Source: Fibrobacteria bacterium (GTDB lineage: Bacteria > Fibrobacterota > Fibrobacteria > UBA11236). From it: a stretch of 37,902 nucleotides of DNA. Location of the stretch: assembly GCA_041746255.1 (NCBI GenBank), contig JBGTHM010000011.1, positions 1 through 37,902 on the forward strand. The letters run 5' to 3'. Of the stretch, positions 7,872-37,902 are shown piece after piece. How positions within the stretch are numbered: position 1 is the first letter of the stretch; each line of letters starts with the position of its first letter. The notes under the pieces are model-generated. The model saw nothing but the letters and a program-made list of their open reading frames with translations, did no database searches and had not been told where the DNA came from. The translations under genes were made by a program, and so were the position numbers.

Positions 7872-7892
7872 AACTGAATCACTCCTATTTAT

Positions 7893-7907
7893 TCGTTAAA
7901 TTAACGA
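7893..7907. promoter_or_regulatory. perfect 15-bp palindrome TCGTTAA-A-TTAACGA, candidate operator
   Basis: Perfect 7-bp inverted repeat about 22 bp upstream of the lyase start codon. Confidence 0.35.
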
Positions 7908-8111
7908 CGCAATCCAATTTTCGCCGCTAAAAAAGAAATTATTTTCGTGACAGTTTATGCTTTTAGAGATCACATCCATATCGGACTCGAAATTTTAGAA
8001 TCGGAGTAAGTTCAACGCGACAATGCAAACACCCTTTGGGGGGCAATGTATAGTGAGCTGCACTTAGACCTTCAAGATTTGGTCCCGAAATCGATACGAT
8101 TGAAGGAATAC

Positions 8112-9122: not shown

Positions 9123-9182
9123 GATATCCCCCCCCTTTTCGTAATTTCCCATCAAATTTTTTACGAGACGAAGTGAACTATT

Positions 9183-11336: not shown

Positions 11337-11358
11337 GTGGTGAAATTTACTTCACCAC
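11337..11358. promoter_or_regulatory. palindromic operator copy 1 (GTGGTGAA-ATTTAC-TTCACCAC)
   Basis: Perfect 8-bp inverted repeat with a 6-bp spacer, upstream of the lyase cassette and overlapping the GH20 stop codon. Confidence 0.7.
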
Positions 11359-13209: not shown

Positions 13210-15300
13210 TTAAAAGGTTACCGTCAGAAACAGACTGGACAGGTTTTGGGAAAACCGCGTTCCGGTTACGGATTCGTCTAAGTCGAGTACGCCATATTCC
13301 GCGGTCACATAGGCGCCGTGGGTAAGCTTAATTTCCAGCCCCACGGACCATTGGGATTGAACCAGGTCGAGTTCATCGAAGGTGCGGGAGCCTGCGTCCC
13401 GGGCGGTTTCCCGATAAGGATTCGAAGCGATTTGTTGGTACCCGGCCGATAGGATCAGGTTATTCGAAACGCCGACCTGAACGCCGGCATTTACCATGGC
13501 GGATTGGAAATCCTGTTGGGAGACGGATATTCCCTTGTCCGTAAAAGCGGGTTGGTTGCGTCCTTCCCGAATATAGCTGCCGGAAAGCGCCAGAGGTCGG
13601 GAAAGTTTCAAAAATTCTCCGGCCTGGACGCTTAGGCCGCCGCCCAGACGCCCGTAGGTGGCGATGCTCGTGATCAAGGTATCCATGTCCCGGCCTTCCA
13701 GTTCTTGCAAACCGGCATACAGTCCGCGCACCTCGATTTTGCTTTCTAAAAACGAAGCTTCCAAATCCAAGGTCAAGCCGGAGCGGTTCGGGGTGGCAGG
13801 ACCGTAGGGAAGCAGCAATTGGACATGCGGATCCAGGGCTCCCGCCAGAGATTCCCTTTCCAATTTAGTGAGAGTCGAGCGGGTGTAGGAATTTTTGAAG
13901 GTGGGAGCCCGGTACCAATTGTTGGTGCCGTTATACTGGTACGCGGCTCCCTGGCCCCAGAATTCCGAGGTATTGATATTTGTGATGGGATCCACGTTGT
14001 ACACATGGTGATACAGGGCATCGAAGGTGCTGTAGCCGCCTATGCCCTCGACACCATTTTTGGAATTAAGGACACGCCCGCCTATGAAGGCGGGGGATTG
14101 GGCAAGGTCATTGACGAAGTCATTTCCATTTCTGAGAAAACCCACCTTGAGGCCGACAGCGAAAAGCGATTCACCCGACGTATATCCGGCTTCGAGTCCG
14201 GCATTTAAAGCATTTCCATCCAGAGCTTGCAACTCTATCAGCTTGGGGCCGGTGAGAGGCCGGGAAATGGGGGTCCACATGCCCGATTGCGGGTTAAGAG
14301 TGGAGTCGGGGTAGTATCCCAAGGTATCGAGACCTTCCCGGCTCCGGCGATAGTTGGAAAAAGCGACTTCCAGGCCGAGTTTCAGGGTCAGATTCCGGCT
14401 TGCGAGCAAATGTTCACCATCAAAATTTAAATTAATCGCGTTTACCAAAACATTTTCATACAGGACTTGAGGAAGTACCCCTTTTGATGAGGTAAAATGG
14501 ACGTTACTTCGGGCCCGACTGCTTCCGATATCGTCCACGGCCCGGACATGAGTACCTCCGATTTCGAGCGCTTCGAAAGCCCGCAACTTGAGGAAGGTTC
14601 CCCCCATGAATTTTTCCGTGGGTCCGGTGTTGAAAAGCCACCCTAAGCCTACCCCGGGATCGGCGCTTCGCAATCTGCCTCCGGTAAGGCCTGCTTCGAA
14701 CCCCAGGACTTCGCCCAGGCCTTGGCGGTATACGGCGTTCAAGCCCTGGATGGGACGGCGGTTATCGGCCAGGAACCATTCGTCCATGGCGTTTTGGCGA
14801 CGGCGGGCGAATATTTCCGGTTCGTACAAGAGTTCCGGTTCGGGAGAGTAAATGGTAAGGGGTGAGTATTTTTGCAATACATCGCCGATGGCGAATTCGA
14901 CCTTTCCATCAATAATAGATCCACCGTAGTCGAACCAACGGGTGCTAATGGGATTGGGACCTTCCGGGTAATGATTTTGCCAATCCTGGTGCACGCGAAA
15001 ATACACTCGTCCGCGCGTGTGGGCGCTCGGTCTCGCAATCAAGCCGATATCGGCCTGGGTGAATGCCGCGTTCTCGCCGACGGGGTGTTCGGGGTTAGCG
15101 CTTTCGCCGGAAAGCGCGGAGCGAAGGAATTCAGACTTGGCCTTGCCCGTGAGGCTGACGCCGATCTCCTCATCCTCCAGTTTGCGGAGGGTATCCTGGG
15201 ATATTCCCGGAATCGGGTGGGACGGCTGCGACCATGCTCCCATGGTGAGGGCCAATAATACGATGGCCGTCGCGCCCGCCATCCTATGCTGCTTAAACAC
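13210..15300 (-). CDS. putative outer-membrane beta-barrel protein (paralog 3)
   Basis: Signal peptide, alternating amphipathic strands, terminal Phe (LFLTVTF). Full-length similarity to the upstream gene. Confidence 0.7.
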   Translation of the reverse strand: MFKQHRMAGATAIVLLALTMGAWSQPSHPIPGISQDTLRKLEDEEIGVSLTGKAKSEFLRSALSGESANPEHPVGENAAFTQADIGLIARPSAHTRGRVYFRVHQDWQNHYPEGPNPISTRWFDYGGSIIDGKVEFAIGDVLQKYSPLTIYSPEPELLYEPEIFARRRQNAMDEWFLADNRRPIQGLNAVYRQGLGEVLGFEAGLTGGRLRSADPGVGLGWLFNTGPTEKFMGGTFLKLRAFEALEIGGTHVRAVDDIGSSRARSNVHFTSSKGVLPQVLYENVLVNAINLNFDGEHLLASRNLTLKLGLEVAFSNYRRSREGLDTLGYYPDSTLNPQSGMWTPISRPLTGPKLIELQALDGNALNAGLEAGYTSGESLFAVGLKVGFLRNGNDFVNDLAQSPAFIGGRVLNSKNGVEGIGGYSTFDALYHHVYNVDPITNINTSEFWGQGAAYQYNGTNNWYRAPTFKNSYTRSTLTKLERESLAGALDPHVQLLLPYGPATPNRSGLTLDLEASFLESKIEVRGLYAGLQELEGRDMDTLITSIATYGRLGGGLSVQAGEFLKLSRPLALSGSYIREGRNQPAFTDKGISVSQQDFQSAMVNAGVQVGVSNNLILSAGYQQIASNPYRETARDAGSRTFDELDLVQSQWSVGLEIKLTHGAYVTAEYGVLDLDESVTGTRFSQNLSSLFLTVTF

Positions 15301-15318
15301 CGGTATATCCCTTTCTGC

Positions 15319-17397
15319 CTAGAACTTTACGTTGATGACCAACTGGGTCAACAACTGCGAAAAGTCCGTCCGGCGATTCTTGGCCGGATCCGCATTTGTT
15401 TCCGCTCCGGTTTGGGCGCTGCCCAGATGAGTGGTAGTCCGTTCCACGTCGATCATGCCTCCCGAGACTACCAAGTAGGCGTTTTCGCCTAAAGCATATT
15501 CCAATCCCCCGCGGTAATGCCTCTGGGTTTCAGCCCTGGAATATTGATGAACGACTTGTTGGGCCGGGACGGAGGTTTCCTGGTTCCGCAGGGTGGATTC
15601 CAGGGTCGCTTGCTGTACACCTCCCAGCAAAGCCCATTTGCGGAAAAACCGGTAATAGCATCCCGCCATCAAAAAATCAGCGGTCACGTCCGGCGACCCC
15701 AGGTCGGTTCCGATGCTACCGCGCGTGGATTGGTTTCGCGCGTAACTGGCGGAAACATCCAAGGGCAGGTTCAATCCCAAAGATTTATCCAATTCCAACT
15801 TCAAGCCTGCGCCGATTTGGGTGAAGGAAGCGAGAGTCGGTATGCCGTCAATCGGATTTCCTTCGATTTCCTCCAGCTTCACTGCATCCATGGAGGCATG
15901 CAAGGTGCTGGCCCAGTGGCCGCGAATCCGAGCCTTGAAGCCGGCCCGGTCAGGAGTCGCCAATCCGAAGGGAAGGGCGAGTTGCAAGACCGGATCGAGA
16001 TGAACGCGGGATAAATCTTCGGGCGAGAGTACGGCCCGGTTATACGAGGTTTTGGTGAATGGGGCATGCTGGTTCGAGGCCGTCCTGCGTGAAGGACTGA
16101 ATTTGTATACACCGTTGTTCAGGGCATCCAGAGTGGAATAAAGTTGGCTGGTAGCGAAATCGTTTTCGGTATTCAGAACGCGCTCGCCGATAAAGGTGGG
16201 GCTTTGGGCCATGGGATTGAGAAAGGACGCGTCGTTGCGGAGATAATGAGCCGTTAGGAATATCCCGTAAGCTCCATCCCGTGGTTGGTAACCGGCGCCC
16301 AGCTCCAGATTGAGGGCGGTGCCGTCCTTTCCGGGAGCCGTCGCCTCGATCTCGACATTCCTGGGAATTCCATCCACACTTTCTTTTTTGAATCGCCAGG
16401 CATAGCGGTTAAATTCGCCAGAAGTTGCGAACTCGCCCAGGATCTCCAATGTTACCTCGGAAACTCCCAGGAACCCGGCGATATCCGCACCTCCATGTCC
16501 GCCGAATATCCGTAAATCCCGGGCGATGACCGAATCCATCCCATTCAGGGAACGACCGTCATGAACGCCGTCGGGATAGACAGAATTATAAACCACGGGT
16601 CCATAGGGAATGAGTTCATAACTGTCCCTGTCGTCGAAAATCGATAGGAAGGAGCCGCCCAACAGGAGGTTGTCCCGCACCAGGATTTGCGAGTTCAAGG
16701 CCAAAAAGAAGCGATCCATGTCGGACCGGGAAAGGCCATACCCATGGCGTCCGTCCGGGTCCAGGAACTCGGCCCTGCGCAAACGCGATCCGATGGCGTC
16801 GGCGCGGAATTCGCTGACGGGTAAGTCGAAGCGTTTGGCCATGTTGAAGTTCAGACCTTGGAGCACCCGGTTGTTGCCGCCCAGAAACTGTTCCTCCATC
16901 AATTCCGCGCGCGGGCGGGAGAATATGAGGGGTTCATAAATCAGGTCGAGCTCCGGAGCCCAGAGGGTCAGGGGCGTGTATTTCTGCTTGAAATCGCCGG
17001 CATTGAAGCCGAGGGTATTCGCCAGGTTACCGTCCACACTGAGCCAGCGGGAGGCGAGAATGCGGCTGCGGGTGGAAAAAAAGGTTTGCCAATCCTGATA
17101 AAACCGGAATTGCGCACGCGCGCCAAGGAAATCGTAAGGGCGGTAATGCATGTCCAAATCGAAGGAGGTGAACTGGGTAGTCTCGTTGGCGTAATTGGTG
17201 TCTATTCGGGCCGATCCGGACAGGCCGGAGTTCAGGTATTCGGCATTGATTTCGCCGCCGATCTCGATCCCGTTCTTGGAAAGCACGTTTTCATATGCGT
17301 CCTCCAGGCGGTTTGGCAAGGGGAAGGCGTCGCCTGGAAAGGCGAGTTGTCCAACGAGAATCACTAGTGCCGTAACTGTGATTTTATTCAAAACCAT
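15319..17397 (-). CDS. putative outer-membrane beta-barrel protein (paralog 2)
   Basis: Signal peptide from the ATG at 17397, which overlaps the upstream gene. Amphipathic strands and terminal Phe (LVINVKF). Confidence 0.7.
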   Translation of the reverse strand: MVLNKITVTALVILVGQLAFPGDAFPLPNRLEDAYENVLSKNGIEIGGEINAEYLNSGLSGSARIDTNYANETTQFTSFDLDMHYRPYDFLGARAQFRFYQDWQTFFSTRSRILASRWLSVDGNLANTLGFNAGDFKQKYTPLTLWAPELDLIYEPLIFSRPRAELMEEQFLGGNNRVLQGLNFNMAKRFDLPVSEFRADAIGSRLRRAEFLDPDGRHGYGLSRSDMDRFFLALNSQILVRDNLLLGGSFLSIFDDRDSYELIPYGPVVYNSVYPDGVHDGRSLNGMDSVIARDLRIFGGHGGADIAGFLGVSEVTLEILGEFATSGEFNRYAWRFKKESVDGIPRNVEIEATAPGKDGTALNLELGAGYQPRDGAYGIFLTAHYLRNDASFLNPMAQSPTFIGERVLNTENDFATSQLYSTLDALNNGVYKFSPSRRTASNQHAPFTKTSYNRAVLSPEDLSRVHLDPVLQLALPFGLATPDRAGFKARIRGHWASTLHASMDAVKLEEIEGNPIDGIPTLASFTQIGAGLKLELDKSLGLNLPLDVSASYARNQSTRGSIGTDLGSPDVTADFLMAGCYYRFFRKWALLGGVQQATLESTLRNQETSVPAQQVVHQYSRAETQRHYRGGLEYALGENAYLVVSGGMIDVERTTTHLGSAQTGAETNADPAKNRRTDFSQLLTQLVINVKF

Positions 17398-19781
17398 ATT
17401 TTTGTTTCCGCGAACAAGAAGGTTCCTTGCCAATTGTTGGATGGCAGATGCTCGTCGTCATGGGTGGCGTATTTGAAGCGGACGTGGACGCCTGCCCGCT
17501 CGCTGAAATCCCAGTCGAAGCCGAGGCCGTAAGCCATTTGCAGGTACTCGATGGGGGAATGAACCGCGACTACCCTGGGAACGGCGTTCTGAGAATTGAT
17601 ATCGAGGCTGGAAATGGGCTCGTAGTAGTTGATGTTGTTATAAGTGGGGGTGATCGCGCTGGTCTTATTGTAAAGGGCGTTGCGATAGGACTTTTCTGAT
17701 TTCCACGTTTCCGCGCCCACCAGCCCGATAACGTGAAAAGAGGGGCTGAGCGCGATGCCAGGCTCCAGCCTAGCCAGACCGGACCAGAGCAGGGTTTTGT
17801 CGGAGTTAAGGATACCGAGTGCGTCGGTTGTGATGGAACTAAACGCACCATACAGGGCGACCAGAATGGTGCGGTCCAGCCCAAACCATTGGTTGATGTT
17901 TCTACCCCAGTCAACGGCCAGGGTAGTGGAAAATTTCTGATGGCGGGGAACGATTCCCGCATTCGCTTGTTCGACGCTTTCGTAGGCAGCGAACTCCTCC
18001 CAAAGTTCCAGGTCGTCGCCGCGCAGGCCGCCGGGTTGGTGGCCGGCGTGCACCAGATTGCGATCCGGGCCGAGATCGCCTATGCGTGCCTGGTATTTGG
18101 GATTGCCGAAGGGAAGCCCCTCGTCCAGCATGCGTCTCGGGTCGGTGCGCGACCAGGATCCGGAGGCGTACCATAAATCCCTTCCGGTCAGATTATGTTG
18201 AAAGCGGAGTATGTCCTTGCCCTTGCCGACCTGGACGTGTTTTCCCAGGGTTACGGCCAAAAACCCGTTGGTAACCTTGGGCGACGCCTTGAAGTTGATT
18301 CCCGTCAGATTGGATTGATAACTGAAGCTACCGACGCCCAGTTTCATTTCGTCCTTGCGCACGGGCACGGCGTATTCGGTCATGGCGTATGGTGACCAGA
18401 AATTCCGGGAAGCGAAAAAAAGCTCCGTTTCCGAGGGATGACTGCCGGTGTTGTTCAACTTCAGGTAGGCGGCCGGAGCCATGGCGCTGGATGCCCTTTC
18501 CGTTCCGCTTCTACCGTCGTAAATAGTAACGTCGGGCTGGGAAGGATCCTGGACCCGCAAGTATTTGACGCTGTCTTCCATGGCCAACGCGATATCCGCT
18601 TGGATAAACAGGGTGGGGCTGAAATTGCCGCGGGCATCTAAGGAAAAAACCCTGGAGTTGGTAAAAAAAGGCTGGCGTCCTCCCCGGAACTGGTACCTGA
18701 ACCCCTGCACGGGATTGGGGGAGAAAACCCTCTGGTTGATGATGTCTTCTGGGAGTTGCACCCAAAGCAGGTTGCCGCCGAGGGTGATGTCGCGGAAAAC
18801 CTTTTGTCGGGTGAGTCGGCCGTAGTACAAATCCCCAATGCTGTTAATTGAACCCAGGGCCTCGGCATCGCCGAGGTGGGAATTGGTGTTACCGTCGGTA
18901 TTGGTGGGTAGAATGTTGGAAGGTTGGGCTACGTCGAATTGCAGTCCGAGGCCGAAAGGCATTTTGTACGCGTCGATCTCTATGCCGCCGAAAGGCTTTT
19001 TCGGCCAAGTGGACCGTCCCTGGTCGTTTCTCCGATAGAAGAATTTCTGGTTATAGTATTGGGCGGAGGACAGCTCGGGTTCATAGGATTCATAATACCA
19101 GGCGAGCCTTTGGCGAGGGTCCCTTTTCCAGATGGTGAAAGGGCTGCCTTCCAGCCACAGGGCGCTTCCGGCGCGCAAGTAGGCGTCGACGGGTTCGGTG
19201 CGGATTTCCATCCCGGCCATCATATCCTCGAAAACCCCCAATCCTTCCCGCTGTTTGTCCTGATTGGTGGGAAAGCGTTTTTTGTCGCTGAATACCGTGT
19301 CGAGGCCGGAGGCACCACTAGGTGTGGTGACCCACCTCGGATGCTTCCAGGACCTTTCGTTCAAGTCATGGCCTTGGAATCCGTACCCGAAGGTCAACAT
19401 GGACCAGACCTTCATGAAGGAATAGGCGTTGACGTTGACCTTGAGGGTAAGCTCCGCGTCCATGAAGGTTCCCGCCGCATCGGTCCCCAACCAAGCGGGG
19501 AATTCATCGTAGCGGTGGTTGAATGCGCGATTGACCAGAAAGCCGGAAAAGCCGACCTTGTCGGACGCGTTGGCGAGGTTGGTGGAGGCGATCCTTTCCT
19601 TGAACGGCAGCAAGGAGTCCGGTTCCGCGTCCGCTGATGCCGTGGTTTGAGGGGAATCGTCCAATGGCTCCGGTGAGGATTCCGCCACGACGGGAGCTTC
19701 TTCTGCTCCAGGTCCGCCGGTCCATGGATACAGCGCCGCCGCCGCAAATATGAGGAGTTCCCTCATTCTCATGCATTTCAC
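17388..19781 (-). CDS. putative outer-membrane beta-barrel protein (more distant member 1)
   Basis: Signal peptide, aromatic-rich strands (YGLGFDWDF…VHVRFKY), terminal AETKIWF. GTG start overlaps the upstream TGA; alternative ATG at 19772. Confidence 0.7.
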   Translation of the reverse strand: MKCMRMRELLIFAAAALYPWTGGPGAEEAPVVAESSPEPLDDSPQTTASADAEPDSLLPFKERIASTNLANASDKVGFSGFLVNRAFNHRYDEFPAWLGTDAAGTFMDAELTLKVNVNAYSFMKVWSMLTFGYGFQGHDLNERSWKHPRWVTTPSGASGLDTVFSDKKRFPTNQDKQREGLGVFEDMMAGMEIRTEPVDAYLRAGSALWLEGSPFTIWKRDPRQRLAWYYESYEPELSSAQYYNQKFFYRRNDQGRSTWPKKPFGGIEIDAYKMPFGLGLQFDVAQPSNILPTNTDGNTNSHLGDAEALGSINSIGDLYYGRLTRQKVFRDITLGGNLLWVQLPEDIINQRVFSPNPVQGFRYQFRGGRQPFFTNSRVFSLDARGNFSPTLFIQADIALAMEDSVKYLRVQDPSQPDVTIYDGRSGTERASSAMAPAAYLKLNNTGSHPSETELFFASRNFWSPYAMTEYAVPVRKDEMKLGVGSFSYQSNLTGINFKASPKVTNGFLAVTLGKHVQVGKGKDILRFQHNLTGRDLWYASGSWSRTDPRRMLDEGLPFGNPKYQARIGDLGPDRNLVHAGHQPGGLRGDDLELWEEFAAYESVEQANAGIVPRHQKFSTTLAVDWGRNINQWFGLDRTILVALYGAFSSITTDALGILNSDKTLLWSGLARLEPGIALSPSFHVIGLVGAETWKSEKSYRNALYNKTSAITPTYNNINYYEPISSLDINSQNAVPRVVAVHSPIEYLQMAYGLGFDWDFSERAGVHVRFKYATHDDEHLPSNNWQGTFLFAETKIWF

Positions 19782-20632
19782 TTGAAATCCTCATTGGTGA
19801 TGGCATAACCCGAACCGCCGACCAGCGAGCCTTCCGGCCCTTTTTTCAAAATCGTCACGTTATCCATCCATATTTTGAAAGATTTGTGCCGTTCCTTGTC
19901 GATATCGAAGGTGAAGCAGGAAACCTGCTTCCAATTGAAGGTGTTGAAAATGCGGGCGTTCACTTCCTCGCTCCAATAACTGCCTCGGGTTCCGAGCGCT
20001 CTCAAGGGAAACCTTACCCGTTTCCACTCTTCTTTGGATACTTTGGCAAAGCTACGGGAGTTGACCCACAGTTGCAATGCGCGTCCGGCCGGATTGTTTC
20101 CGTTATCGAGCAGCCCTACGCTGAACACCTCCTGGCCTTCGGCGCCCTTGACCCATAATTCCACCACGCCGGTTTCCAGGTAGGGGGACAGGTCCACCGG
20201 AGCGGGTGAACAAACGGCTCCGCCGGAATAGGCGTCGGCCTTGAGGATAACTTCCAGCGAAAACCGTCCGTCTTTGGCCTGAACGTCGGTCATGGCCGGT
20301 CTGGGATAACCGGAACCATCGGGATACATCCAGACCTGCGCGCCGGGAACCATGTTATCGTCCACGAATGCGATGGCCAGATTGGGATCCCGGTTCTTAC
20401 GCTTGAGCTGGAAATTGAGGACGGATGAGGAACGGTTTCGAATCCCTTGGAAATTCGTAGTCCCTGAAATCGCTCGCTTTGCGCGTACGTGCATGGTCTC
20501 CAGGGAAAGCGTATCTTTGCTCTCTAGGAGCGCTTCAGTTTCCGAACCACCTATGGCGGTACCGCCAAATCCAAGCATGACCAATATGGGGCTTGCGTAT
20601 TGAAGGGCCAAAAAGGTTCGTGATGCCTTCAC
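19778..20632 (-). CDS. secreted non-catalytic carbohydrate-binding-domain protein (CBM30/CBM11-like beta-sandwich)
   Basis: Signal peptide. DLSPY…LELWVKG-x2-G-x-E-x-FSVGLLD, WKRVRFPL, FNWKQV, IWMDNV pattern of galactose-binding-like folds. Confidence 0.65.
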   Translation of the reverse strand: MKASRTFLALQYASPILVMLGFGGTAIGGSETEALLESKDTLSLETMHVRAKRAISGTTNFQGIRNRSSSVLNFQLKRKNRDPNLAIAFVDDNMVPGAQVWMYPDGSGYPRPAMTDVQAKDGRFSLEVILKADAYSGGAVCSPAPVDLSPYLETGVVELWVKGAEGQEVFSVGLLDNGNNPAGRALQLWVNSRSFAKVSKEEWKRVRFPLRALGTRGSYWSEEVNARIFNTFNWKQVSCFTFDIDKERHKSFKIWMDNVTILKKGPEGSLVGGSGYAITNEDFK

Positions 20633-20656
20633 TCGAAACTACCTACATCTTTATAG

Positions 20657-20693
20657 AAAATGAAAAGAGGGGAAGGTGGCCTTCTTGCCCCCC
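20657..20693 (-). terminator. putative intrinsic terminator inside the operon
   Basis: Minus strand reads GGGGGGCAAGAAGG-CCA-CCTTCCCCTC followed by TTTTCATTTT, just after the stop at 20710. Confidence 0.45.
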
Positions 20694-20709
20694 ATGGAAA
20701 TACTTGGAT

Positions 20710-21771
20710 TTATTTTAACAGGGTGATGGTATTGGAAATATTCTCGTTGCCGACTTTCGCATGGACCATGTAAACGCCGTTGTCCAACATGGATAGGTCC
20801 ATAATGGGACGCAAAGTAGACACAACGCCGGAGGTCATGACCTTACCCGATAGACTCCTAACAGCGACCTCCATCGTGCCGATTTTAGCAATATCGGTGA
20901 AATGAAGCGCGCCGTCGGCGATGTTCATGGAAAATCTTTTGTGCTTACCGGCTGCGATTTCAAAAATTGAGTTAGGAGTTGCATTGGGGACGACCTGGCA
21001 GTTGACTCCGTTGAGAGCTACTTTCTTGACGGTCAGGGTGTGTTCGTTTTGGTCATATGGCGCAGGTTCGGCGGCGACCAAACCGGTTTGGCCTTCATAG
21101 AAAATTATTAGTCGTGTGACTTTGGTTAGGTCCAAAGCGGCAGCGGCGGGATCGATCCATTTGGGGGCGATGCCGACAAATCCGGAAGTGAGGGCGAATT
21201 TTTTACCGACTTCAACTGCGCCGGTTCCTTGATATCTCCACCCATATTGCGGGCTGGTGGGGCTGTCCTTCTCGATCCAGGGATTGTAAAGACCGATCCA
21301 AAGCTGGCGGTTGGCAGTAAAACCGATATCCAATTCCAGCTCGGTGCAGGAACTAATATTGACCTCATTTCCCTTTTCCCAGGGCAGTTTTTCCCAAGCA
21401 TCCGGACCGACTTCAGCCTTAAAATTCATCACCCAGCCTGCATAGGCCCATTTCTTATCAACGCCCGCATCGGCGGTTACTTTTAGTTTTGAGACCAGCG
21501 CTCCACCGTCATAGGCCTTGGCGATGTTGTGTCCTGCATAGCAACCCGACGCGCAACCCTCTCCTAGAACCAAATCACTGCCGGTGAAGATGTCGAGAAC
21601 CTTGGATGAGCCACCGACGCCGGGCCAGATGTCGGAATCGGCGCTCCAATTCCCGCCAAGCTTGTTGGCCCCGGTGGTATTGGTGAAATCATCAACTAGC
21701 ACGTTGGCATGAATCACCACAACGCCCAGGAGCAACCCACCCAGGGTGGTTCTTATCTGCTTCGAATTCAT
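20710..21771 (-). CDS. secreted CBM11/CIA30-like domain protein with T9SS type A-like C-terminal domain
   Basis: Signal peptide (…VIHA). LVDDF…GGNW-x3-D…GGSS domain start. CTD reads VRSLSGKV…DLSMLDNGVYMV. Purine-rich RBS. Confidence 0.7.
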   Translation of the reverse strand: MNSKQIRTTLGGLLLGVVVIHANVLVDDFTNTTGANKLGGNWSADSDIWPGVGGSSKVLDIFTGSDLVLGEGCASGCYAGHNIAKAYDGGALVSKLKVTADAGVDKKWAYAGWVMNFKAEVGPDAWEKLPWEKGNEVNISSCTELELDIGFTANRQLWIGLYNPWIEKDSPTSPQYGWRYQGTGAVEVGKKFALTSGFVGIAPKWIDPAAAALDLTKVTRLIIFYEGQTGLVAAEPAPYDQNEHTLTVKKVALNGVNCQVVPNATPNSIFEIAAGKHKRFSMNIADGALHFTDIAKIGTMEVAVRSLSGKVMTSGVVSTLRPIMDLSMLDNGVYMVHAKVGNENISNTITLLK

Positions 21772-21886: not shown

Positions 21887-21908
21887 GTGATGAATCATTT
21901 TTCACCAC
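21887..21908. promoter_or_regulatory. palindromic operator copy 2 (GTGATGAA-TCATTT-TTCACCAC)
   Basis: Lies in the AT-rich divergent promoter region between the outer-membrane operon and the chitinase. Confidence 0.75.
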
Positions 21909-30281: not shown

Positions 30282-31604
30282 CTATTTGACCATGTCGCCC
30301 AGGTTGATTCCATCCAGGCGGATGTGATCTAACTGGAATTCGGATCCGCCCGTGCCTATGAAGCGGATGGAGCGGATCATGCCGCCCATTTCCTGCCATG
30401 ACTCCGGCTTTTTGATATACAGGGGGAGCTTGGCCGATAGGAATTGAGCATGGTGTTTTTCCGGCGCGTCCGGGAAAACCGAGGCGATTATGCGAAGGTT
30501 ATCGGGAGTTATGGAGACCAGTCCCCAGTCCGCGGTCAGGGCAACCGAATCCATGGCCACCACATGTAAGGGATATCCACCTTTGATTGGGTTTTGAATG
30601 AGTTCGATTACCAAGTTGCCGGTTCCGCGAGCAAAAAAACTGAGAGTGTCAAATGCGGATAGATTGTAATGGATATCGGAACCGCCTAGATTCAATTCAA
30701 CCGTGACAAAAGGATAGGGTTTATCGAGTCCAGCGCCGCCTTCCGTGTATAGGACCTTCAAGGCCTTGCCTCGCTCTCCTCCCTCATTCAATATGGCAGA
30801 GGAGAAATTAAGGGGGGCGGCATTCAAAGGCATGAGCAGCTTGGAGGAGCCACCGACGTATTCATCGCTGTAGGCGTCCCAATAGCCGCCGCCAAGTAGC
30901 GGGCCGATGCTGTTACGGTTGTCTCGATCTTCGAAATCATCTAATAAGACGAACTTGCGTGGTGTTGGAACAATTGTGTCTACTTGCGTCTCAAGTCTCC
31001 CGTCCAGTTCAACTTCGTCGGCGACGAAAAACACCTCGCTGCCATCAGCCTTAACGCTCCGAATCAGGACGGAATAATGCTGTTGCGGCACGGACTTGAG
31101 AGAAAACCCGCCCGTGGATTCGTCAACATCCGCGGAAAAAGGCGTTCCGGCAAGAAGCACTTGCTTGGAGGCGGCCAAAGAATCCATGATCACCCCATTG
31201 TAAGTTACCAGCGCACGCATGGAAATTTTTCCCCAGTACTCCTTATTCAGCCGTTGCTGCGAGACCTCACGGATTAGGAATCCGTTGCTTCCATCGCTTG
31301 CCATGATGCTTGCGACGGTTCCGGAATCAACGTTGAACTTGAATACGCCTGAATCATTCGTGACAGCACTGTCAATCACGATGCTGTTGCCGTTTATAAT
31401 ATTGGTCACCCATTCCTTCTCATTCAAAAGGTAAACCTTTGTGTTCGAAGCCACCACGCCGTCCGGACGCATCACCATTGCGGTGATTCCGTTTGTGGTC
31501 TCGATGGTCCCACCCGCATGTGGGCCGGCGCCGCTTTCGAAGCAACCCCAGAAGATAACGGCCACACTGGAAATGGCAACTGATATGAGCCACCTGCAAC
31601 TCAT
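30282..31604 (-). CDS. lipoprotein with two beta-sandwich stalk domains and a CBM11/CIA30-like domain
   Basis: Lipobox IFWG-C21, then GGTIETTNG. C-terminal LLDDFED…GGYW-x3-SD…GGSS…FFARGTG…W domain. ATGA overlap with the TIGR02147 gene. Confidence 0.75.
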   Translation of the reverse strand: MSCRWLISVAISSVAVIFWGCFESGAGPHAGGTIETTNGITAMVMRPDGVVASNTKVYLLNEKEWVTNIINGNSIVIDSAVTNDSGVFKFNVDSGTVASIMASDGSNGFLIREVSQQRLNKEYWGKISMRALVTYNGVIMDSLAASKQVLLAGTPFSADVDESTGGFSLKSVPQQHYSVLIRSVKADGSEVFFVADEVELDGRLETQVDTIVPTPRKFVLLDDFEDRDNRNSIGPLLGGGYWDAYSDEYVGGSSKLLMPLNAAPLNFSSAILNEGGERGKALKVLYTEGGAGLDKPYPFVTVELNLGGSDIHYNLSAFDTLSFFARGTGNLVIELIQNPIKGGYPLHVVAMDSVALTADWGLVSITPDNLRIIASVFPDAPEKHHAQFLSAKLPLYIKKPESWQEMGGMIRSIRFIGTGGSEFQLDHIRLDGINLGDMVK

Positions 31605-32437
31605 TTCAAATTCCTCCGTCTGGCGGTAAGCGGGAAAAGCTGTAAATTCATTTGATACACCCGGTCCGGATTGCTGTAGCTATTGGCTAGTTTCTTGAGC
31701 GACTCGCGACACTCGCCAACCAATTCCCGGATCTCCGGAATGGCGGCTTCAGGAATGTTTAAGGTCAAGGTCGATATGTCCCGTTCTTCTTTTTGAAATC
31801 GCTCAAGTGATCCCTCCGCCAGGCGAATCATCTCCCTTTGGTATTCGGTGATGGCCAAGGATTGCCATTCCTTGCCTGTAGTCAGATTGAGTCCGGCGGC
31901 ATAGAATTCCCCGTCCTCGGTCCTTTTAATGAGACCGAGATCGTCCAACAATTTCAAAGCAGCCTTGGCCTCTTTTGCGGTTATGGCAGGTGCCAATTGA
32001 GTCGCGATATCCTTGGCTTCTCCTTTGAAGGATTCCCCGGAGAGCAGAGACCAAACCGCCGAGTAATACCATTTTTGGAAGAATTCGTATTGATTTTTCC
32101 CAAGCTTGTCGGATTTTGCCTTGTTTAAGGAAAGCATCTTCTCGAAATAGATTTTGCTGTCCTTTTCCGTCTTCGCTTTACTGAAGTGGACCAGGCAATT
32201 GAAAAAAGCGGCTTCCTGATCGTTGAATCCACAAACCTTGGTGAATTTATCAATCCGGTTGTCGGCGATATGGAGATTACCTTGCAGCACCTTAATCAGG
32301 AAGCTGGAATCCATACCCACTCTATTCCCAATGTACCTATAGGAAATAAAGGCGCTGGTTTTTTTCTGTTGGATATAAAAATCTCTCAGAAATGCGCGGT
32401 AATCCAAATAATCGTATACGCTAATCACTAACTTCAA
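31601..32437 (-). CDS. TIGR02147/DUF4423-family protein with N-terminal HTH-like region
   Basis: YxDYRxFLRDFY…SYR…G…L-x-KVLQG, WYYSAV, ERDISTLTL, VYQMNLQLFPL are characteristic of the family. TTG start. Confidence 0.9.
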   Translation of the reverse strand: MKLVISVYDYLDYRAFLRDFYIQQKKTSAFISYRYIGNRVGMDSSFLIKVLQGNLHIADNRIDKFTKVCGFNDQEAAFFNCLVHFSKAKTEKDSKIYFEKMLSLNKAKSDKLGKNQYEFFQKWYYSAVWSLLSGESFKGEAKDIATQLAPAITAKEAKAALKLLDDLGLIKRTEDGEFYAAGLNLTTGKEWQSLAITEYQREMIRLAEGSLERFQKEERDISTLTLNIPEAAIPEIRELVGECRESLKKLANSYSNPDRVYQMNLQLFPLTARRRNLK

Positions 32438-32477
32438 TTTATGCCTGAACCGTTTATTTGTCCACCAAGGTTATTAG

Positions 32478-32623
32478 GAATGTGATGAAGAATAGTTCAC
32501 CAAAATACCCCAAACATCCCGAATGTGAGCCAAATTATCCAAAGTTAAGACGCTATGTGCTCTGGCGCCGAGGGACATTTTTCATCGGTAGCTAATTATT
32601 CCAGCGGTGTTTTCACCAATTCC
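32478..32623. repeat. diverged direct repeat, copy A (operator plus relic of the nagB 3' end)
   Basis: Aligns with 36086-36200 apart from a ~30-bp extra segment. Minus strand encodes ELVKTPLE*. Confidence 0.85.
32482..32503. promoter_or_regulatory. palindromic operator copy 3 (GTGATGAA-GAATAG-TTCACCAA)
   Basis: About 45 bp upstream of the TIGR02147 start codon. Confidence 0.75.
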
Positions 32624-32627
32624 GACC

Positions 32628-35600
32628 TCAATTTCTGATAAGGCCGAATTTTTTCTTTTCCTCGAACCTGCCCGGTTGCGCTCCCGTCCTCAGGTCCCGG
32701 CCGGTGACGAAGGTGGCCTTGAGAATATACGCCCCGGTGCCGACCCGGGTTCCCCTGCTGGTCCATCCCGTCCAGACGATAGGCACTTCATAGCTGGCCC
32801 CCAACGCCGTGCTGGTGTATTTCACCTGGGAGAGATCCTGCTCGTTTATTTTACCGGTACCCGAGGCGATAAACTCGCCCACGTTGCTGAATATTTTAAA
32901 ATCGTAATCCAACGGTCCCGGCGTGAAAATCTGGAAAACCGGTCCCACGAATATTCCGCCCTGTTGGGGCTGACAGCTCTCGCATTTGCCGTCCGAATGT
33001 CCCGGAAGGGGCGCTCCATCCTTATTGATGGGAATGAACAACGCATTCTGGCGATGGGTGATGGGAGCTCCCTGGGAAGCTGTTTCCCGGGTTCCGTTGG
33101 GGAAAAGGATCACCAGCTTGACCGGCTTGGGTTGGGGCGGTAGGCCGTCCAGCAAGCGAAAGAGCTTGATGGACGGCGAATTGCCATTGGCGTCCCTGGT
33201 TACGCGATTGGTGTTGATGGCTACCGAATCCCCAACAATGGGAAAGACGGTGGAGTTTTCATCGATGAAGAATACCACCCGTCTGGTATCCATCAGCTCG
33301 TGGCGCAAGATCACCACGGCGCCGGCAGGGAGTTCCGAGCCGTCCCTTTTGAATACCAGCGGCAGCGAGGCCTCGGACGAGAGGGTCACTGGTTCCGAGT
33401 AGGTGATGATGACGCGTTTCAAGGGAATGTCCGCATCGGGTTCCTTAATTTCCGCGCCGAGAATGATGGGTGGTATTGAATCGTCCACGGCAAAGGCGCC
33501 GTCGTTCAAGGGGAAATTATCCTGCCGGAAGGTTTGACCGGAGAAATCCCGATTGCGCAAGGACGTAATACCCTGATCGAAAGGCGAAACGAAGGTGACG
33601 ATGGCGCGGTTCCCGGACAGGGTGATTTCTCCGGCGGAGGCAGTGCGGACATATTCCTTCCCGTCCTCACCGGTGATCCTGAACGTCAATTTCTCCGGAG
33701 CCGAGGGAGGAACCTTTTCGAATTGGACGATGGCTTTGTCGATGTGTCCATCGCCGTTCTCATCCAGATACCAGGCCTTTGAGATGCCGATGGTAGGCAG
33801 GTTGGTGGGCGTGGCCACCTGCGGGGGCACGGGGGGATCGCCGCAAATGGCGGTGGAATGGGCGGTGAAATCAAGTTGCTGCACCGTGGAGTTTCCGCAG
33901 CCATCCGTGGAACGCACCCAAAGCGCGCCCTTCTCCCCTCTCTTGGGGTAACCGGGACGTTTACAGGAAACGTGGAATTCGTATTTGTTGCCGCCAAGGT
34001 GGGTGGCGGCGTTCCAGACGACCCAGTTTGTGTCCATGCTCCAATCCGCTTTGATTCCAGGTTCATTGTCCTTGGTGTCGAAGGTCACCTTGAACCCGGG
34101 ATCGATGATGGGCGCTATGGCCGCGCCTTTCACGGGGGAAGTGAGGGTGAGATTCGGATAGATTTCGTCCTTGAGCTTGCCCGCGCAGGTGCGGGCGTTC
34201 TTGCTGTTGCGGTCTACCATCAGGCGGAAATCGGATTGGACGGGTACCAGGCGTCTCCGTGAGGGCAGGTAGTTTTTCGCGACGCGCAGAATCGTCAGCC
34301 AGTCATAGCGAAAGCTTATGGCCTCCTTGCCGTTGGTGGAGGGCGCCTTGCCTTTGAGCCGGTTGAAGGCGCATTCCAGATCCGTCTGTAAAGCCTTCCT
34401 CTGTTCCACATCGAGGTCGAAGTGTAAGAGCAGTCCACCATCCGCTTGGGTCTCGGGTGTGCCGGGAGAGGCGGTTCCCCCATAGAAGAAACGCCGGATC
34501 TCGGTCCAGGTAATGTCCGCGTCATAGATTATGTTACCGCCTCCGCAGGTGGAGGAGGATTTCGACGCGTCTACCTGCGCGTCCAGCAACCTGAACACAT
34601 TGGTCCGGTAATCACCGTTGCCCGCTGGAAACCTGAGAGACGCCTGGGGATCGTTTTTCAGATTAGGATCCTTGAGGGCGGACTCGAAACCGGAATTGGG
34701 GCCGAGATTGTAGCCGGGGATGAGAGCGGCGAGGCCGACTCGCGGATCTTTGCCGTTGACTATGGCATCGGCGAAGCAAAGGTCGGTGGAATGCTCCAGG
34801 CCGTCATAAAGCCAATACCAAACCAGGGCGGAAGAAAGGACGGAGTTGGCGATTTGTGGAGAGTTGGGGCCGGTGCCGCCGGCTCCGGGCGCGGGTGTGT
34901 ATCCGGGCGTACGCATGTAGAAGGCGGAGGCGGCGGTCCATTGACCATTGTCTCCGGAACAGGAGGCTGCAGTGGTCACGTCCCGAAACCTACCCATGCA
35001 GGGGCCGTATTTGGGGTAGAACTGTGGATAGGATTGCATGGTGCGGGCGAAGGTGGTGGCTTCGATTTCCCATGGGCTGAACGCGCCGTCGTCGTCTCGG
35101 TTGAAACTCGCCCATTCCGAAATGGAACCCAGGTTTTCCCTGCCATGCTCGACGAAGCCGAACATGGTTTCCTTGCCGGCAATGGCGGCCAGAAATTGCA
35201 TGTCCACATTCAGGATTTCCTGGGCCATGGACAGGGCCATCATGTACTGCGGGCCGCCCAAGGAACGGGGATCCCATTTGACCTGCATTCCGTTCAACGT
35301 GACGGGAGTGGAGGGAATGGCCGCCTGGATTTGCGTCTGACCGAAAAAGGTGGATACCAGACCACCGAAGCTCTCTCCTCCATTTGTTCCTATGGAATCG
35401 ACAATACACTGGGTTCCATAAAAGGAGGTTGGCGCTTGCGCGGGGATGGCGGCACATTTCAAGGGTTCCGCGTCCGTATAAGGCGGCGCCTCGCTGCATG
35501 AGCCGGTTTTGACCAAAGTCTGCGGGTCGAATAAGGTCCCGTTCTGCCCGGCGGCCAGAGTGCCGGTATAATCCACGGCGGCGGCTCTACAGACGCCCGC

Positions 35601-35912
35601 CTGCATTTGTTGCTGGTCGTTGGGAGGAATCTTCTGCGTATACTCGACGGGGGCAGCTCCCTCCCGGGTCAGTCCCTGCATCCAGGTCGAATAACCAGCG
35701 AAGTCTTGGGTACGGAATTTCCAGCCCTCGACCAATTGCGGAGACGCCGTCTCATTGCAGGTGTGCACCCGTGGATATTGGGTGCCCGGCCCGACCAGAT
35801 TGTCGTTGCCCTGAAACGTGACGGAAACCTGGGATTGGCCGATCCCAAAAAAGGAAAGACAAACCGCCCGAATCAGGAGCCTTTTTCGGAAATGTGACAT
35901 TTTTATCATCAT
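32628..35912 (-). CDS. large secreted protein: Cys-rich/lysozyme-like N-terminal region, Ig-like domain, Fibrobacter-type C-terminal region
   Basis: Signal peptide after ATG 35912/35909/35900. AIAGKET and GYNLG motifs, Pro-rich linker, YLDENGDGHID, and FlgD-Ig-like end IFSNVGEFI…WTG…G-x-RVGTGAYI. Confidence 0.75.
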   Translation of the reverse strand: MMIKMSHFRKRLLIRAVCLSFFGIGQSQVSVTFQGNDNLVGPGTQYPRVHTCNETASPQLVEGWKFRTQDFAGYSTWMQGLTREGAAPVEYTQKIPPNDQQQMQAGVCRAAAVDYTGTLAAGQNGTLFDPQTLVKTGSCSEAPPYTDAEPLKCAAIPAQAPTSFYGTQCIVDSIGTNGGESFGGLVSTFFGQTQIQAAIPSTPVTLNGMQVKWDPRSLGGPQYMMALSMAQEILNVDMQFLAAIAGKETMFGFVEHGRENLGSISEWASFNRDDDGAFSPWEIEATTFARTMQSYPQFYPKYGPCMGRFRDVTTAASCSGDNGQWTAASAFYMRTPGYTPAPGAGGTGPNSPQIANSVLSSALVWYWLYDGLEHSTDLCFADAIVNGKDPRVGLAALIPGYNLGPNSGFESALKDPNLKNDPQASLRFPAGNGDYRTNVFRLLDAQVDASKSSSTCGGGNIIYDADITWTEIRRFFYGGTASPGTPETQADGGLLLHFDLDVEQRKALQTDLECAFNRLKGKAPSTNGKEAISFRYDWLTILRVAKNYLPSRRRLVPVQSDFRLMVDRNSKNARTCAGKLKDEIYPNLTLTSPVKGAAIAPIIDPGFKVTFDTKDNEPGIKADWSMDTNWVVWNAATHLGGNKYEFHVSCKRPGYPKRGEKGALWVRSTDGCGNSTVQQLDFTAHSTAICGDPPVPPQVATPTNLPTIGISKAWYLDENGDGHIDKAIVQFEKVPPSAPEKLTFRITGEDGKEYVRTASAGEITLSGNRAIVTFVSPFDQGITSLRNRDFSGQTFRQDNFPLNDGAFAVDDSIPPIILGAEIKEPDADIPLKRVIITYSEPVTLSSEASLPLVFKRDGSELPAGAVVILRHELMDTRRVVFFIDENSTVFPIVGDSVAINTNRVTRDANGNSPSIKLFRLLDGLPPQPKPVKLVILFPNGTRETASQGAPITHRQNALFIPINKDGAPLPGHSDGKCESCQPQQGGIFVGPVFQIFTPGPLDYDFKIFSNVGEFIASGTGKINEQDLSQVKYTSTALGASYEVPIVWTGWTSRGTRVGTGAYILKATFVTGRDLRTGAQPGRFEEKKKFGLIRN

Positions 35913-36020
35913 GTAATTCTTCGATAGGTGGATTTCGATTTGGTTCATGCGCAATACCTTATCCTGTACTGCCAAAACTAGGGTCGAAGGGTGAGTTTGT
36001 CCACCGGTGCCCACGCGAAA

Positions 36021-36042
36021 GTGATGAACTCCTTATCATCAG
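36021..36042. promoter_or_regulatory. palindromic operator copy 4 (GTGATGAA-CTCCTT-ATCATCAG)
   Basis: Same arms and spacer as the other copies, upstream of the large secreted gene. Confidence 0.6.
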
Positions 36043-36085
36043 GCTAGCCGATAAAGACGAGGTTTTTGGGGAGGATTAGGGTTAT

Positions 36086-36200
36086 GAATGTGATGAAGTG
36101 GCGTTCACCAAAATACCGACAATTAGGACGTCTTGTGATCTGGCGTCGTGGCCAGTTTTCATCGGTAGCTACTTATTCCAAAGGTGATTTCACCAGCTCC
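36086..36200. repeat. diverged direct repeat, copy B (operator plus nagB 3' end)
   Basis: Shares GAATGTGATGAAG, GTTCACCAAAATACC and TTTTCATCGGTAGCTA-TTATTCCA with 32478-32623. Confidence 0.85.
36090..36111. promoter_or_regulatory. palindromic operator copy 5 (GTGATGAA-GTGGCG-TTCACCAA)
   Basis: Same arms and spacer as the other copies. Confidence 0.75.
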
Positions 36201-37792
36201 TTGCTCCGCATCAATTCCTTGTGGGGTTTCATTTCCTCCACGAACTCGGTATAGCTCATGTCCTTGAGATAGATCGCCCCATAAGCGCGCCGCATCATGG
36301 GATGGAGGTGTCCATAGAACGCCTCCTTGCCAAGGAGAGTAGTGAGATCCTTGAACTGTTCCGCCCAACTCTTCTGGCACAATTCGCTGAAGGTGCCGTC
36401 CAGCTCGTAACTGGGAAAAGACGCGGACTTCTGGCTGACGAAGCAGCTTTGGAACATGTTATGAAGCACGGCGAATGAGTTCAGAGAAACCGGAATAATG
36501 GTATTCACTTCAGCGGGATGGAAACGCGCCCACACGTTTCGATAGCCCCAGACGCGCAGGTTTTCGCTACCATGCCGGGCTGTGTAGGTTTCCAAGGCTG
36601 CGGCTATGGCCATGAGCACCTTGAAATGGGTGTCCGGGCCGCTACCTTCGGGATCAAGAGCCAAAGTGACCACAGTGGGGCGAACCTTTTCCAACAAATC
36701 CACTATGGGTAGTACGTCTCGCTCGTATTCGGGATCCTGGGGGAAGGTGGCGTCCGTATAGAATTTTAAACGCATATGGGTGACTTGCTCCGGACCGAAT
36801 CCGAAGTGGGCCCATACCAGCTCGGCTTCCCATTCCCGCAGCCAGCCTTTGAGCAATTGCATGGTTTCAGGTTCCCGCTTCCCCGGGGGCAGTGATTCGA
36901 TGAAACCGATTTGCTCGTTGACAACGGTTTGAATGCTTTCAGCAGTGGCCGACTCCAAATGCTTACGAAAGAAGCGATAGATGCGGCAAGCCGTGAACAG
37001 AGCCTGGCCGGCCAAGTTCTGTTCGGCGATGGCATTGAGATAGCCGTAGATTTCTTTGTAGCGGGCTTCTTCCCTGCCCAAGTCCCTTTCATCCATGCGC
37101 TGAAAAAGACTTCCGTCCCGAAGGCACTCGCGCAAGGCGATCATTCGTTCCAGGAGGTAATGGTTTGTCACCGAAGTGAAGCCGCTGGTGAGGTAACAAA
37201 AATGATTGTAATTACGTTCCGATCGCACCAGGTGGTGGAGCAGTGGAAAGTAGGCCAGCTCGATGTCGTCATGATGCGGACCGGTATGCAAAAAACGTTG
37301 TTCGGCGGCCGGGGATCCGTTCTTGGTCCCAAGTCCGGACAGCCGCAGGCCGTTCTGGATTTTTTGCATCAGGCTTTCCTTAGCGGCCTGGGCCAAAACC
37401 GGAATGGGCATGCCTGTCAAGTTGGACGCCAAATCCCAGGATGCCGTCTTGGTAGCCCCTTTGCCCGCATTTTTTAATTCCTCGTGTTTGGAAAGCGCAC
37501 CGTCGAGGATCAGTTTATGGCAATCCACTTCGGAGAGCCGGGAACCGCCGGCATGGTTGAGAATTTTAAAACGCCTGGATTTCAGGCGGGAAGCCGCTCC
37601 CTTGGTCAAGAAAAAACGAGTATTGGGTAGCTTCTGCAGGCAACTGGCTGGACTGTTTATGTCTGGATCCTCTTCGATAGCCTGAGCCACCACCTTGGAC
37701 TTAGCCTCGCCGGCGGCCATGATGATGGCGACCACCTCGGGGTTGTAGGTGATGGTTTCGAGCCCTATGGTGATGACGGCTTTTTTTCGGAC
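36173..37792 (-). CDS. nagB: long-form glucosamine-6-phosphate deaminase fused to a PIG-L/LmbE-like domain; 5' part missing
   Basis: Deaminase C-terminal motifs VITIGLETI, MAAGEAKS, PASCLQ, then PHHDD and GPDTH in the fused domain. NagB-like sequence stops at about 37792. Confidence 0.8.
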   Translation of the reverse strand, partial: VRKKAVITIGLETITYNPEVVAIIMAAGEAKSKVVAQAIEEDPDINSPASCLQKLPNTRFFLTKGAASRLKSRRFKILNHAGGSRLSEVDCHKLILDGALSKHEELKNAGKGATKTASWDLASNLTGMPIPVLAQAAKESLMQKIQNGLRLSGLGTKNGSPAAEQRFLHTGPHHDDIELAYFPLLHHLVRSERNYNHFCYLTSGFTSVTNHYLLERMIALRECLRDGSLFQRMDERDLGREEARYKEIYGYLNAIAEQNLAGQALFTACRIYRFFRKHLESATAESIQTVVNEQIGFIESLPPGKREPETMQLLKGWLREWEAELVWAHFGFGPEQVTHMRLKFYTDATFPQDPEYERDVLPIVDLLEKVRPTVVTLALDPEGSGPDTHFKVLMAIAAALETYTARHGSENLRVWGYRNVWARFHPAEVNTIIPVSLNSFAVLHNMFQSCFVSQKSASFPSYELDGTFSELCQKSWAEQFKDLTTLLGKEAFYGHLHPMMRRAYGAIYLKDMSYTEFVEEMKPHKELMRSKELVKSPLE

Positions 37793-37902
37793 ACTGCTAT
37801 GGCGTTTGGTATGCGCCGTCTCTCTATTATAGACCTTGGGGGTGGCAAGCAACCCATAGAAAATGAAGAGGGAAATCTTATCATTGTTTTTAATGGCGAG
37901 AT
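37772..37902 (+). CDS. asnB: internal fragment of glutamine-hydrolysing asparagine synthase (no start codon region; runs off the window)
   Basis: Plus strand reads DDGFFSDTAMAFGMRRLSIIDLGGGKQPIENEEGNLIIVFNGE(I), the hallmark class-II GATase motifs of AsnB. The N-terminal MCGI…HRGP is absent. Confidence 0.85.

Follow-up and report, generated by a model that had tools for sequence, protein, structure and literature searches.

Integrative elements that insert at the 3′ end of a gene leave attL and attR repeats. Gene order can also change by direct duplication of a segment and subsequent loss from both copies, with remnants left behind, as in the SNAP model outlined in PMC7055797, where it is also stated that, once the process has run to completion, none of its traces is peculiar to the model. 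Experimental support for SNAP is given in PMC9016547, and tandem duplication-random loss (TDRL) is described for mitochondria in PMC5745709. Here we analyzed a stretch of 37,902 nucleotides from a Fibrobacteria bacterium (the window), which is the whole of contig JBGTHM010000011.1 (C11) of assembly GCA_041746255.1. It carries a gene cluster for chitin use that comprises GH20 and GH18 genes, a peptide-type ABC transporter, a TIGR02147 gene and a long nagB-like gene. Within this cluster, a large secreted gene, ChiD1 (32628-35912; 1094 aa as called in P0001), is bracketed by two direct repeats, copy A (32478-32623) and copy B (36086-36200), each containing a nagB 3′ end and a palindromic site; these and the other features located below between 31601 and 37792 are on the minus strand. 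We propose that this arrangement is probably the scar of a local tandem duplication that was followed by deletions within one chitin-use cluster, in the course of which ChiD1, a member of the cluster beforehand, changed its place.

The locus shares with SNAP and TDRL a direct repeat of non-mobile chromosomal DNA, a change in gene order, and a short remnant, the nagB relic of one copy, whereas none was found upstream of ChiD2. It differs in that the case is natural, small (about 15-20 kb by our estimate) and nearly complete, and in that the ancestral order can be read from relatives. In addition, SNAP involves positive selection for the duplication, which would be conjectural here. With the attL and attR repeats of integrative elements, the locus shares an intact gene end on one side, a relic on the other and the direct orientation of the two, whereas no integrase was found in the scanned open reading frames (ORFs), the segment holds one resident gene, and the repeats are diverged.

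The two copies were identical at 96 of 115 aligned bases, with 19 mismatches, and copy A was 31 bases longer than copy B in the global alignment (83% identity; longest exact match, 16 bases). The local alignment score of the pair was 119, as compared with a maximum of 38 in 1000 dinucleotide shuffles. Outside the palindrome, where a lack of significance would have refuted the repeat, the relic codons and the bases behind the stop together scored 70, and none of 1000 shuffles exceeded 30. A blastn search of the pair against the whole 4.6-Mb genome gave an E value of 2e-13, and the next best match had an E value of 0.017. Copy B contains the true nagB end, ELVKSPLE*, whereas copy A encodes ELVKTPLE* 5 bases 3′ of the stop of the large gene (32596-32622, lacking a start codon of its own), with 5 differences in 27 bases. 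This relic is closer to the nagB of its own lineage (ELVK.PLE) than to those of the relatives (EQVR/EQVK). The arms of the palindrome were identical in the two copies, whereas 4 of the 6 spacer bases differed (GAATAG and GTGGCG). The direct repeats, the relic and the kept arms were all as an earlier, sequence-only reading of the window had described them, and that observation is confirmed. No second duplication was seen among the genome's own sites, as no pair besides A and B, together with the overlapping region at 36022, exceeded its shuffles.

We compared the window with four related loci, three in genomes (G009, G013 and G017) and one in a metagenome (L040). In G009 and G013, the order is site-ChiD1-geneX-site-ChiD2-nagB-site-TIGR02147, with one unrelated opposite-strand gene in G009. 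The order in L040 and G017 is the same without nagB, read across a contig break in G017; nagB was absent between ChiD2 and TIGR02147 at L040:21842-22077 and L077:6205-6468, and no relic was discerned by eye in L040. None of the four loci had the window's gene order or a second copy of the repeat. In all four, the cluster includes a counterpart of ChiD1 that is placed two or three genes farther upstream, within the same segment, has the same orientation and is preceded by a site and promoter of its own. The order in the window is derived, because two relatives have nagB directly before TIGR02147 with a single copy of the repeat, which bears out the ancestral order proposed in the sequence-only reading. 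In the window genome itself, contig C22 carries the paralogous chitinase gene ChiD2 and, immediately after it, the 5′ half of nagB, which ends that contig about 14 codons short of the 3′ part in the window (36173-37792, PRK02122 type). The order ChiD2-nagB-ChiD1-TIGR02147 can thus be read across an assembly gap.

ChiD is held by 3 of the 31 genomes of the family, the same three hold an oppA orthologue (3 of 38 in the order), and they also hold a TIGR02147 orthologue at 73% identity, the next best being 52%; tallies over the family, order and phylum take in G021 as one row, whose sequence supports none of the claims made here. The named homologues come from Fibrobacterota.

The palindrome, TGRTGAA-N6-TTCAYCA, had five perfect and four one-mismatch matches in the genome. 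Six of the genome's own sites and 16 of 16 sites of the relatives showed the same geometry, in which the site is followed after 18 bases by a TGGACA-like -35 box and, after a further 17, by a TAGTTT-like -10 box; this pattern was drawn from these same sites, although the core promoter alone occurs only 52 times in the genome. The combination of site and -35 pattern was found in 4 of 296 genomes of the phylum, which are those with the 73% TIGR02147 orthologue.

The site of copy A (TGGTGAA-N6-TTCATCA, 32483-32502) is followed after 18 bases by a sigma-70-type core promoter, TGGACA-17-TAAATT (32436-32464), which lies outside the repeat and would serve TIGR02147. Copy B carries a perfect site (36091-36110) and ends before the -35 box, so that it is the one perfect site with no core promoter behind it. 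This early end had been missed in the sequence-only reading, as had a third site, which lies 69 bases downstream of the copy B site (36022-36041, TGATGAT-N6-TTCATCA, one mismatch) and precedes the native core promoter of the chitinase gene, TGGACA-17-TAGTTT (35975-36003). Among the 55 bases behind each site, those behind 36022 best matched the four ChiD1 promoters of the relatives (33-35 of 55), those of copy A best matched the TIGR02147 promoters (33 and 31 of 55), and those of copy B matched no promoter (19 of 55 at most). In addition, copy A could be aligned over its full length with the 86 bases that precede the site in each of the four relatives, at a score reached by 1-2 of 300 shuffles. 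These comparisons identify copy A as the full ancestral TIGR02147 promoter; since copy A has the ancestral length, the 31 bases were lost from copy B. Between the end of copy B and site 36022 lies a junction (36042-36085) with what appears to be the native upstream region of the chitinase promoter, where the match is weak: the 40 bases before the site agreed with the regions upstream of the relatives' ChiD1 at 19-22 of 40 positions and with one ChiD2 upstream region at 23.

The following series of events would account for the locus. Starting from the ancestral order site1-ChiD1-geneX-site2-ChiD2-nagB-site3-TIGR02147-lipoprotein-ABC transporter, a segment that began shortly before site1 and ended shortly after site3 would have been duplicated in tandem, creating a new joint, site3′/site1, near 36080. 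In the second copy, geneX, ChiD2 and nagB except for its last nine codons would then have been deleted, giving the joint near 32625, and in the first copy ChiD1-geneX would have been lost. The result would be ChiD2-nagB-site3′ (copy B)-site1-ChiD1-relic-site3 (copy A)-TIGR02147. Copy A would have stayed because it is the TIGR02147 promoter, and copy B would be an orphan site. The duplication and deletions would together give the two sites 69 bases apart, the relic, the whole promoter of copy A and the cut promoter of copy B. The hexanucleotide AATTGA, common to the chitinase stop and nagB, was considered as microhomology at the deletion joint; however, the joint cannot be fixed in this way, because the end of the gene is its native one and because ChiD1 of G013 is likewise followed by GGTCGG.

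The ChiD1 gene looks native, since its GC content (57.5) and that at third codon positions (GC3, 70.2) fit its neighbours nagB, oppA and ChiD2 (54-59 and 65-75, respectively), as does its pattern of identity to the relatives, which was 54-57% and 50-54% by domain. The window was an outlier among the relatives for ChiD1, as it was for TIGR02147 and the lipoprotein. In a quick tree, the C-terminal domain of ChiD1 grouped with ChiD1 proteins, apart from geneX and ChiD2 (support 97).

Several observations tell against duplication and deletion at this locus. The assembly does not connect C22 to the window, and there are only four related loci, three of them from one genus. G001, the sole genome of the same genus, had no match to the chitinase or oppA. 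A ChiD1 or geneX relic upstream of the genome's own ChiD2 was not found (best blastn E value, 0.12), nor was an orthologue of geneX or of the genes upstream of ChiD1 found in the assembly. By hand count, four of the five differences between the relic and the nagB end are synonymous, as if both copies had diverged while coding. Furthermore, the catalytic domain of ChiD1 grouped with P0002 and short stand-alone forms (support 97/96) and not with the ChiD1 of the relatives' clusters, whereas the genome's own ChiD2 nested with those of G013 and L040, so that the two may have had separate histories. The catalytic-domain tree was built after removal of 2 of 29 rows with short cover.

The synonymous differences, the grouping of the catalytic domain and the lack of a left-hand relic keep open a transfer from a close lineage. 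A donor that had lost geneX-ChiD2-nagB and carried site1-ChiD1-relic-site3-TIGR02147 would have recombined into a recipient with ChiD2-nagB, with homologous exchange on the side of TIGR02147 and illegitimate joining just past site3 of the recipient, and the two copies would be xenologues. The absence of nagB from its place in two of the four related loci is consistent with such a donor. However, the donor itself was unseen in the 296 genomes searched, the composition is native, and three of the five changes, when polarized by hand against the relatives, fell on the relic, as neutral decay predicts. We regard this transfer as the main rival explanation, possible although unlikely.

A Campbell-type integration of a 3.6-kb circle carrying the nagB end, the site and ChiD1 at the nagB 3′ end would also fit the geometry, with an intact gene on one side and a 3′ relic on the other; the incoming copy B would restore nagB and displace the resident copy A, which has the ancestral length. 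However, no integrase or transposase was found in the window ORFs (24 scanned against Pfam and 21 against NCBIfam), as the sequence-only reading had also seen, and no relative was found in viral contigs. The repeats show only 83% identity and differ by an indel of 31 bases, the gene carried would be a resident one, and the circle would itself need both joints that duplication and deletion provide. Such an integration is improbable. Excision is expected to be rare, because the repeats are 83% identical with a longest exact match of 16 bases, and no joined or empty-site form was seen in the contigs of three public runs, of which only X1 covers the stretch, and contigs drop rare forms; no RNA data set was listed as containing the stretch.

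The sequence-only reading had proposed an insertion that brought a new gene to the cluster and put it under the control of the regulon through the duplicated promoter. The single-copy nagB-TIGR02147 order of G009 and G013 and the perfect site of copy B upstream of the gene agree with this proposal, and its interpretation is in part supported. However, a site and a core promoter belong to the gene itself and match those of counterparts that are already in the cluster at all four loci, and copy B holds no core promoter, while the native promoter behind 36022 has been kept; insertion of a new gene is hence very improbable. An assembly artefact is scarcely credible, since 19 mismatches and 31 extra bases set the copies apart and a separately assembled contig of one public run, possibly built from the same reads, spans 31747-37792 with both joints and no differing letter, although the last 110 bases of the window contig look chimeric. 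In these bases (37793-37902), the plus strand encodes a glutamine-amidotransferase N-terminus (PF13522, E value 1.9e-6), whereas the public contig continues in nagB (GGIES, as in the relatives).

By homology, the large gene is predicted to encode a chitinase akin to archaeal ChiD, and its context of GH18, GH20, nagB and ABC transporter genes would fit hydrolysis of chitin. It matched no family in Pfam or NCBIfam. A profile of 18 relatives matched the archaeal chitinase of PDB 5XSV with an E value of 1.1e-13, and the same structure was the top Foldseek match of the ChiD1 model (E value 4e-16; TM 0.67 on the target). Glu260 (codon 35169-35171) was invariant in the 18 sequences, and its motif AAKE aligned to AGKE of 5XSV, in which we take the corresponding Glu to be the catalytic residue of a GH23-like fold. 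The predicted protein consists of a ChiD-like chitinase domain, an Ig-like domain and a lineage-specific C-terminal domain. It shares with archaeal ChiD (PDB 5XSV, 5XSW and 5XSX) homology of the catalytic domain in sequence and fold as well as the aligned Glu, whereas the identity is 17%, the protein is bacterial, and the C-terminal domain is specific to its lineage. A passage of the review PMC8615776 files the archaeal ChiD enzyme under GH18.

ChiD1 lacks two PF13290/PF13287 repeats (about 200 aa, at about 33790-33810) that its 11 full-length relatives carry between the Ig-like and C-terminal domains. In P0002, the closest homologue (64%), the catalytic domain is sister to that of the window and the C-terminal domain is sister to that of G013 ChiD1, so that P0002 is likely a domain swap. 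The ChiD-like domain (P0019-P0141) formed 127 clusters at 50% identity, taken at E values up to 0.001 and in proteins of 100-2900 aa.

The palindrome is most likely the binding site of the adjacent TIGR02147/DUF4423 protein (31601-32428), and the simplest reading of the locus is that this protein binds the site and controls its own gene and the chitin genes. The protein scored 261 bits for TIGR02147 (cut-off 50) and 121.8 for DUF4423 (cut-off 30). Its model contains an N-terminal XRE-type helix-turn-helix (HTH) and a winged helix, matched with middling scores (Z 7-9, best 8.8), and had no Foldseek match at an E value of 0.001. For the nearest homologues in the phylum, 26 regions upstream of the gene were scored for the site, one of which, from G003, had been seen before. 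Where the recognition helix read MD(S/N)S(F/Y)x(I/V)(K/R)V, 11 of 12 homologues had the site at 12-14 of 14 bases, which none of 100 shuffles of each reached, whereas none of the 14 homologues with other helices reached 12 matching bases. Other helices went with other palindromes: all seven proteins with a D(A/P)SYL helix carried GTGGAC-N6-GTCCAN, and all three with DPG(Y/F)LV carried GTTGAT-N6-A(T/A)CAAC. The count overstates the association between site and helix, because these genomes are related to one another and the 11 happen to be the nearest homologues as well.

Other findings speak against this assignment. L247 and L249 have similar helices and no site. Most TIGR02147 paralogues lack the site geometry, since 5 of 105 regions (84 of the 88 loci given and 21 own paralogues) had it exactly and 24 of 105 with one mismatch, against a background of 11-12%. 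Distant homologues had no TGGACA at +18, and activation would therefore not be general. As for other candidate regulators, ROK was found in none of five genomes, LacI scored above its cut-off only in G000 and G001, and the genome's own GntR-like proteins were at most 31% identical to those of G009, G013 and G017; no shared candidate was found among these three families, the search not extending to CRP, AraC, LuxR and two-component families. A 960-aa gene beside the cluster in the relatives proved to be amylase-like. No paper was found on TIGR02147 by name, and a wider literature search gave nothing relevant.

Activators usually bind upstream of the -35 box, CRP doing so at -61.5. The center of the palindrome lies near -63, upstream of the -35 box, which is this usual activator position and makes an operator in the repressor sense doubtful. 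We infer that the bound TIGR02147 protein would activate the sigma-70 promoter from about -63. With class I activators, as generally described for CRP, the system shares a palindrome set at a constant spacing from the sigma-70 promoter downstream of it, and with XRE-family regulators (HigA, DdrO, P22 c2 and C proteins) it shares an XRE-like HTH, which here is seen in the predicted model only. It differs from both in the two-domain protein of a paralogous family and in an extra half-site at 83-87 bases. Only 7 bases separate the -10 box from the GTG that is probably the start codon of TIGR02147 (32426-32441), as in G009, G013 and L040, which suggests a leaderless transcript. Six terminators were found, against 4.7 in shuffles, and none was informative.

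This extra half-site is CGATGAA (32581-32587) in copy A, 85 bases before the site, which is the ancestral spacing. All four relatives have TGGTGAA 86 bases upstream of the TIGR02147 site, and 10 of 10 distant homologues examined have a half-site 83-87 bases upstream. The protein may thus bind the full palindrome together with a half-site about eight helical turns upstream. In copy B, TGGTGAA occurs within the LVK codons of nagB (36189-36195), and the 31-base deletion places it at 85 bases from the site; this spacing was noticed after the fact, and it favours a function for copy B. The sequence-only reading had taken the kept arms and changed spacer as a sign of selection. All four differences in the last 32 bases do fall in the spacer (arms versus spacer, p = 0.003), but the arms did not differ from the rest of the repeat (p = 0.12) and the 12 flanking bases were equally unchanged. 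Four adjacent mismatches arose by chance in 5.8% of trials (p = 0.058), and one mutation event could explain them. Selection on the copy B arms is no more than suggested. Only tentatively, the TIGR02147 family might read a full palindrome plus a half-site eight turns upstream, with the scar reused at the chitinase promoter. If so, the 31-base deletion brought the nagB-encoded half-site to the conserved 85-base distance, and copy B is a second working module that compensates for the weakened native chitinase site. The family-wide spacing signal was weak, with lags of 86 (0.12 versus 0.04) and 44 (0.17 versus 0.05) standing out among 91 lags in 45 groups.

Related arrangements were observed elsewhere. 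In G003, the next-closest TIGR02147 of the family (52%) lies with a lipoprotein between two GH18 genes (L229:8862-13922), and the only match to the site pattern in that genome is upstream of this TIGR02147, with a second TTCCTCA 86 bases on. Another TIGR02147 group, at L114 and L129, has GTTCAC-N5-GTGAAC upstream, with a different spacer. Genomes of the family each encode several proteins of 540-600 aa in which two GntR-like winged helices stand in tandem (G000:C97:50640-52412 and C112:241-1869).

Two other sites of the window lie before genes of note. At 11338-11357, the left arm of the site is formed by the end of the GH20 gene (TGG TGA A); in G009, the GH20-end half-site lies 89 bases before a separate site, and the two may have collapsed in the window. 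Behind this site are polysaccharide-lyase genes (6570-11210; low GC3, 47-57) where the relatives have a GH18 gene, and these are a better candidate for foreign genes captured by a promoter of the regulon. Behind the site at 21888 are five conserved genes (13210-21771) in the same order as in G009 and G013, of which two match outer-membrane barrels, one carries a CBM30 and two have no clear family; they are possibly an uptake system unlike SusC/D.

The scar records an ordinary kind of event, yet it can be read from the order in the ancestor through the two joints to what became of either copy, which is rare for natural bacterial rearrangements. The locus also draws attention to ChiD-like chitinases as a family in bacteria for which Pfam has no model. 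More is gained from the regulon, as a single protein and its site are found here with six promoters and a plausible inducer, presumably chitin oligomers, which makes the function of the TIGR02147 family, with 21 paralogues in this genome, testable.

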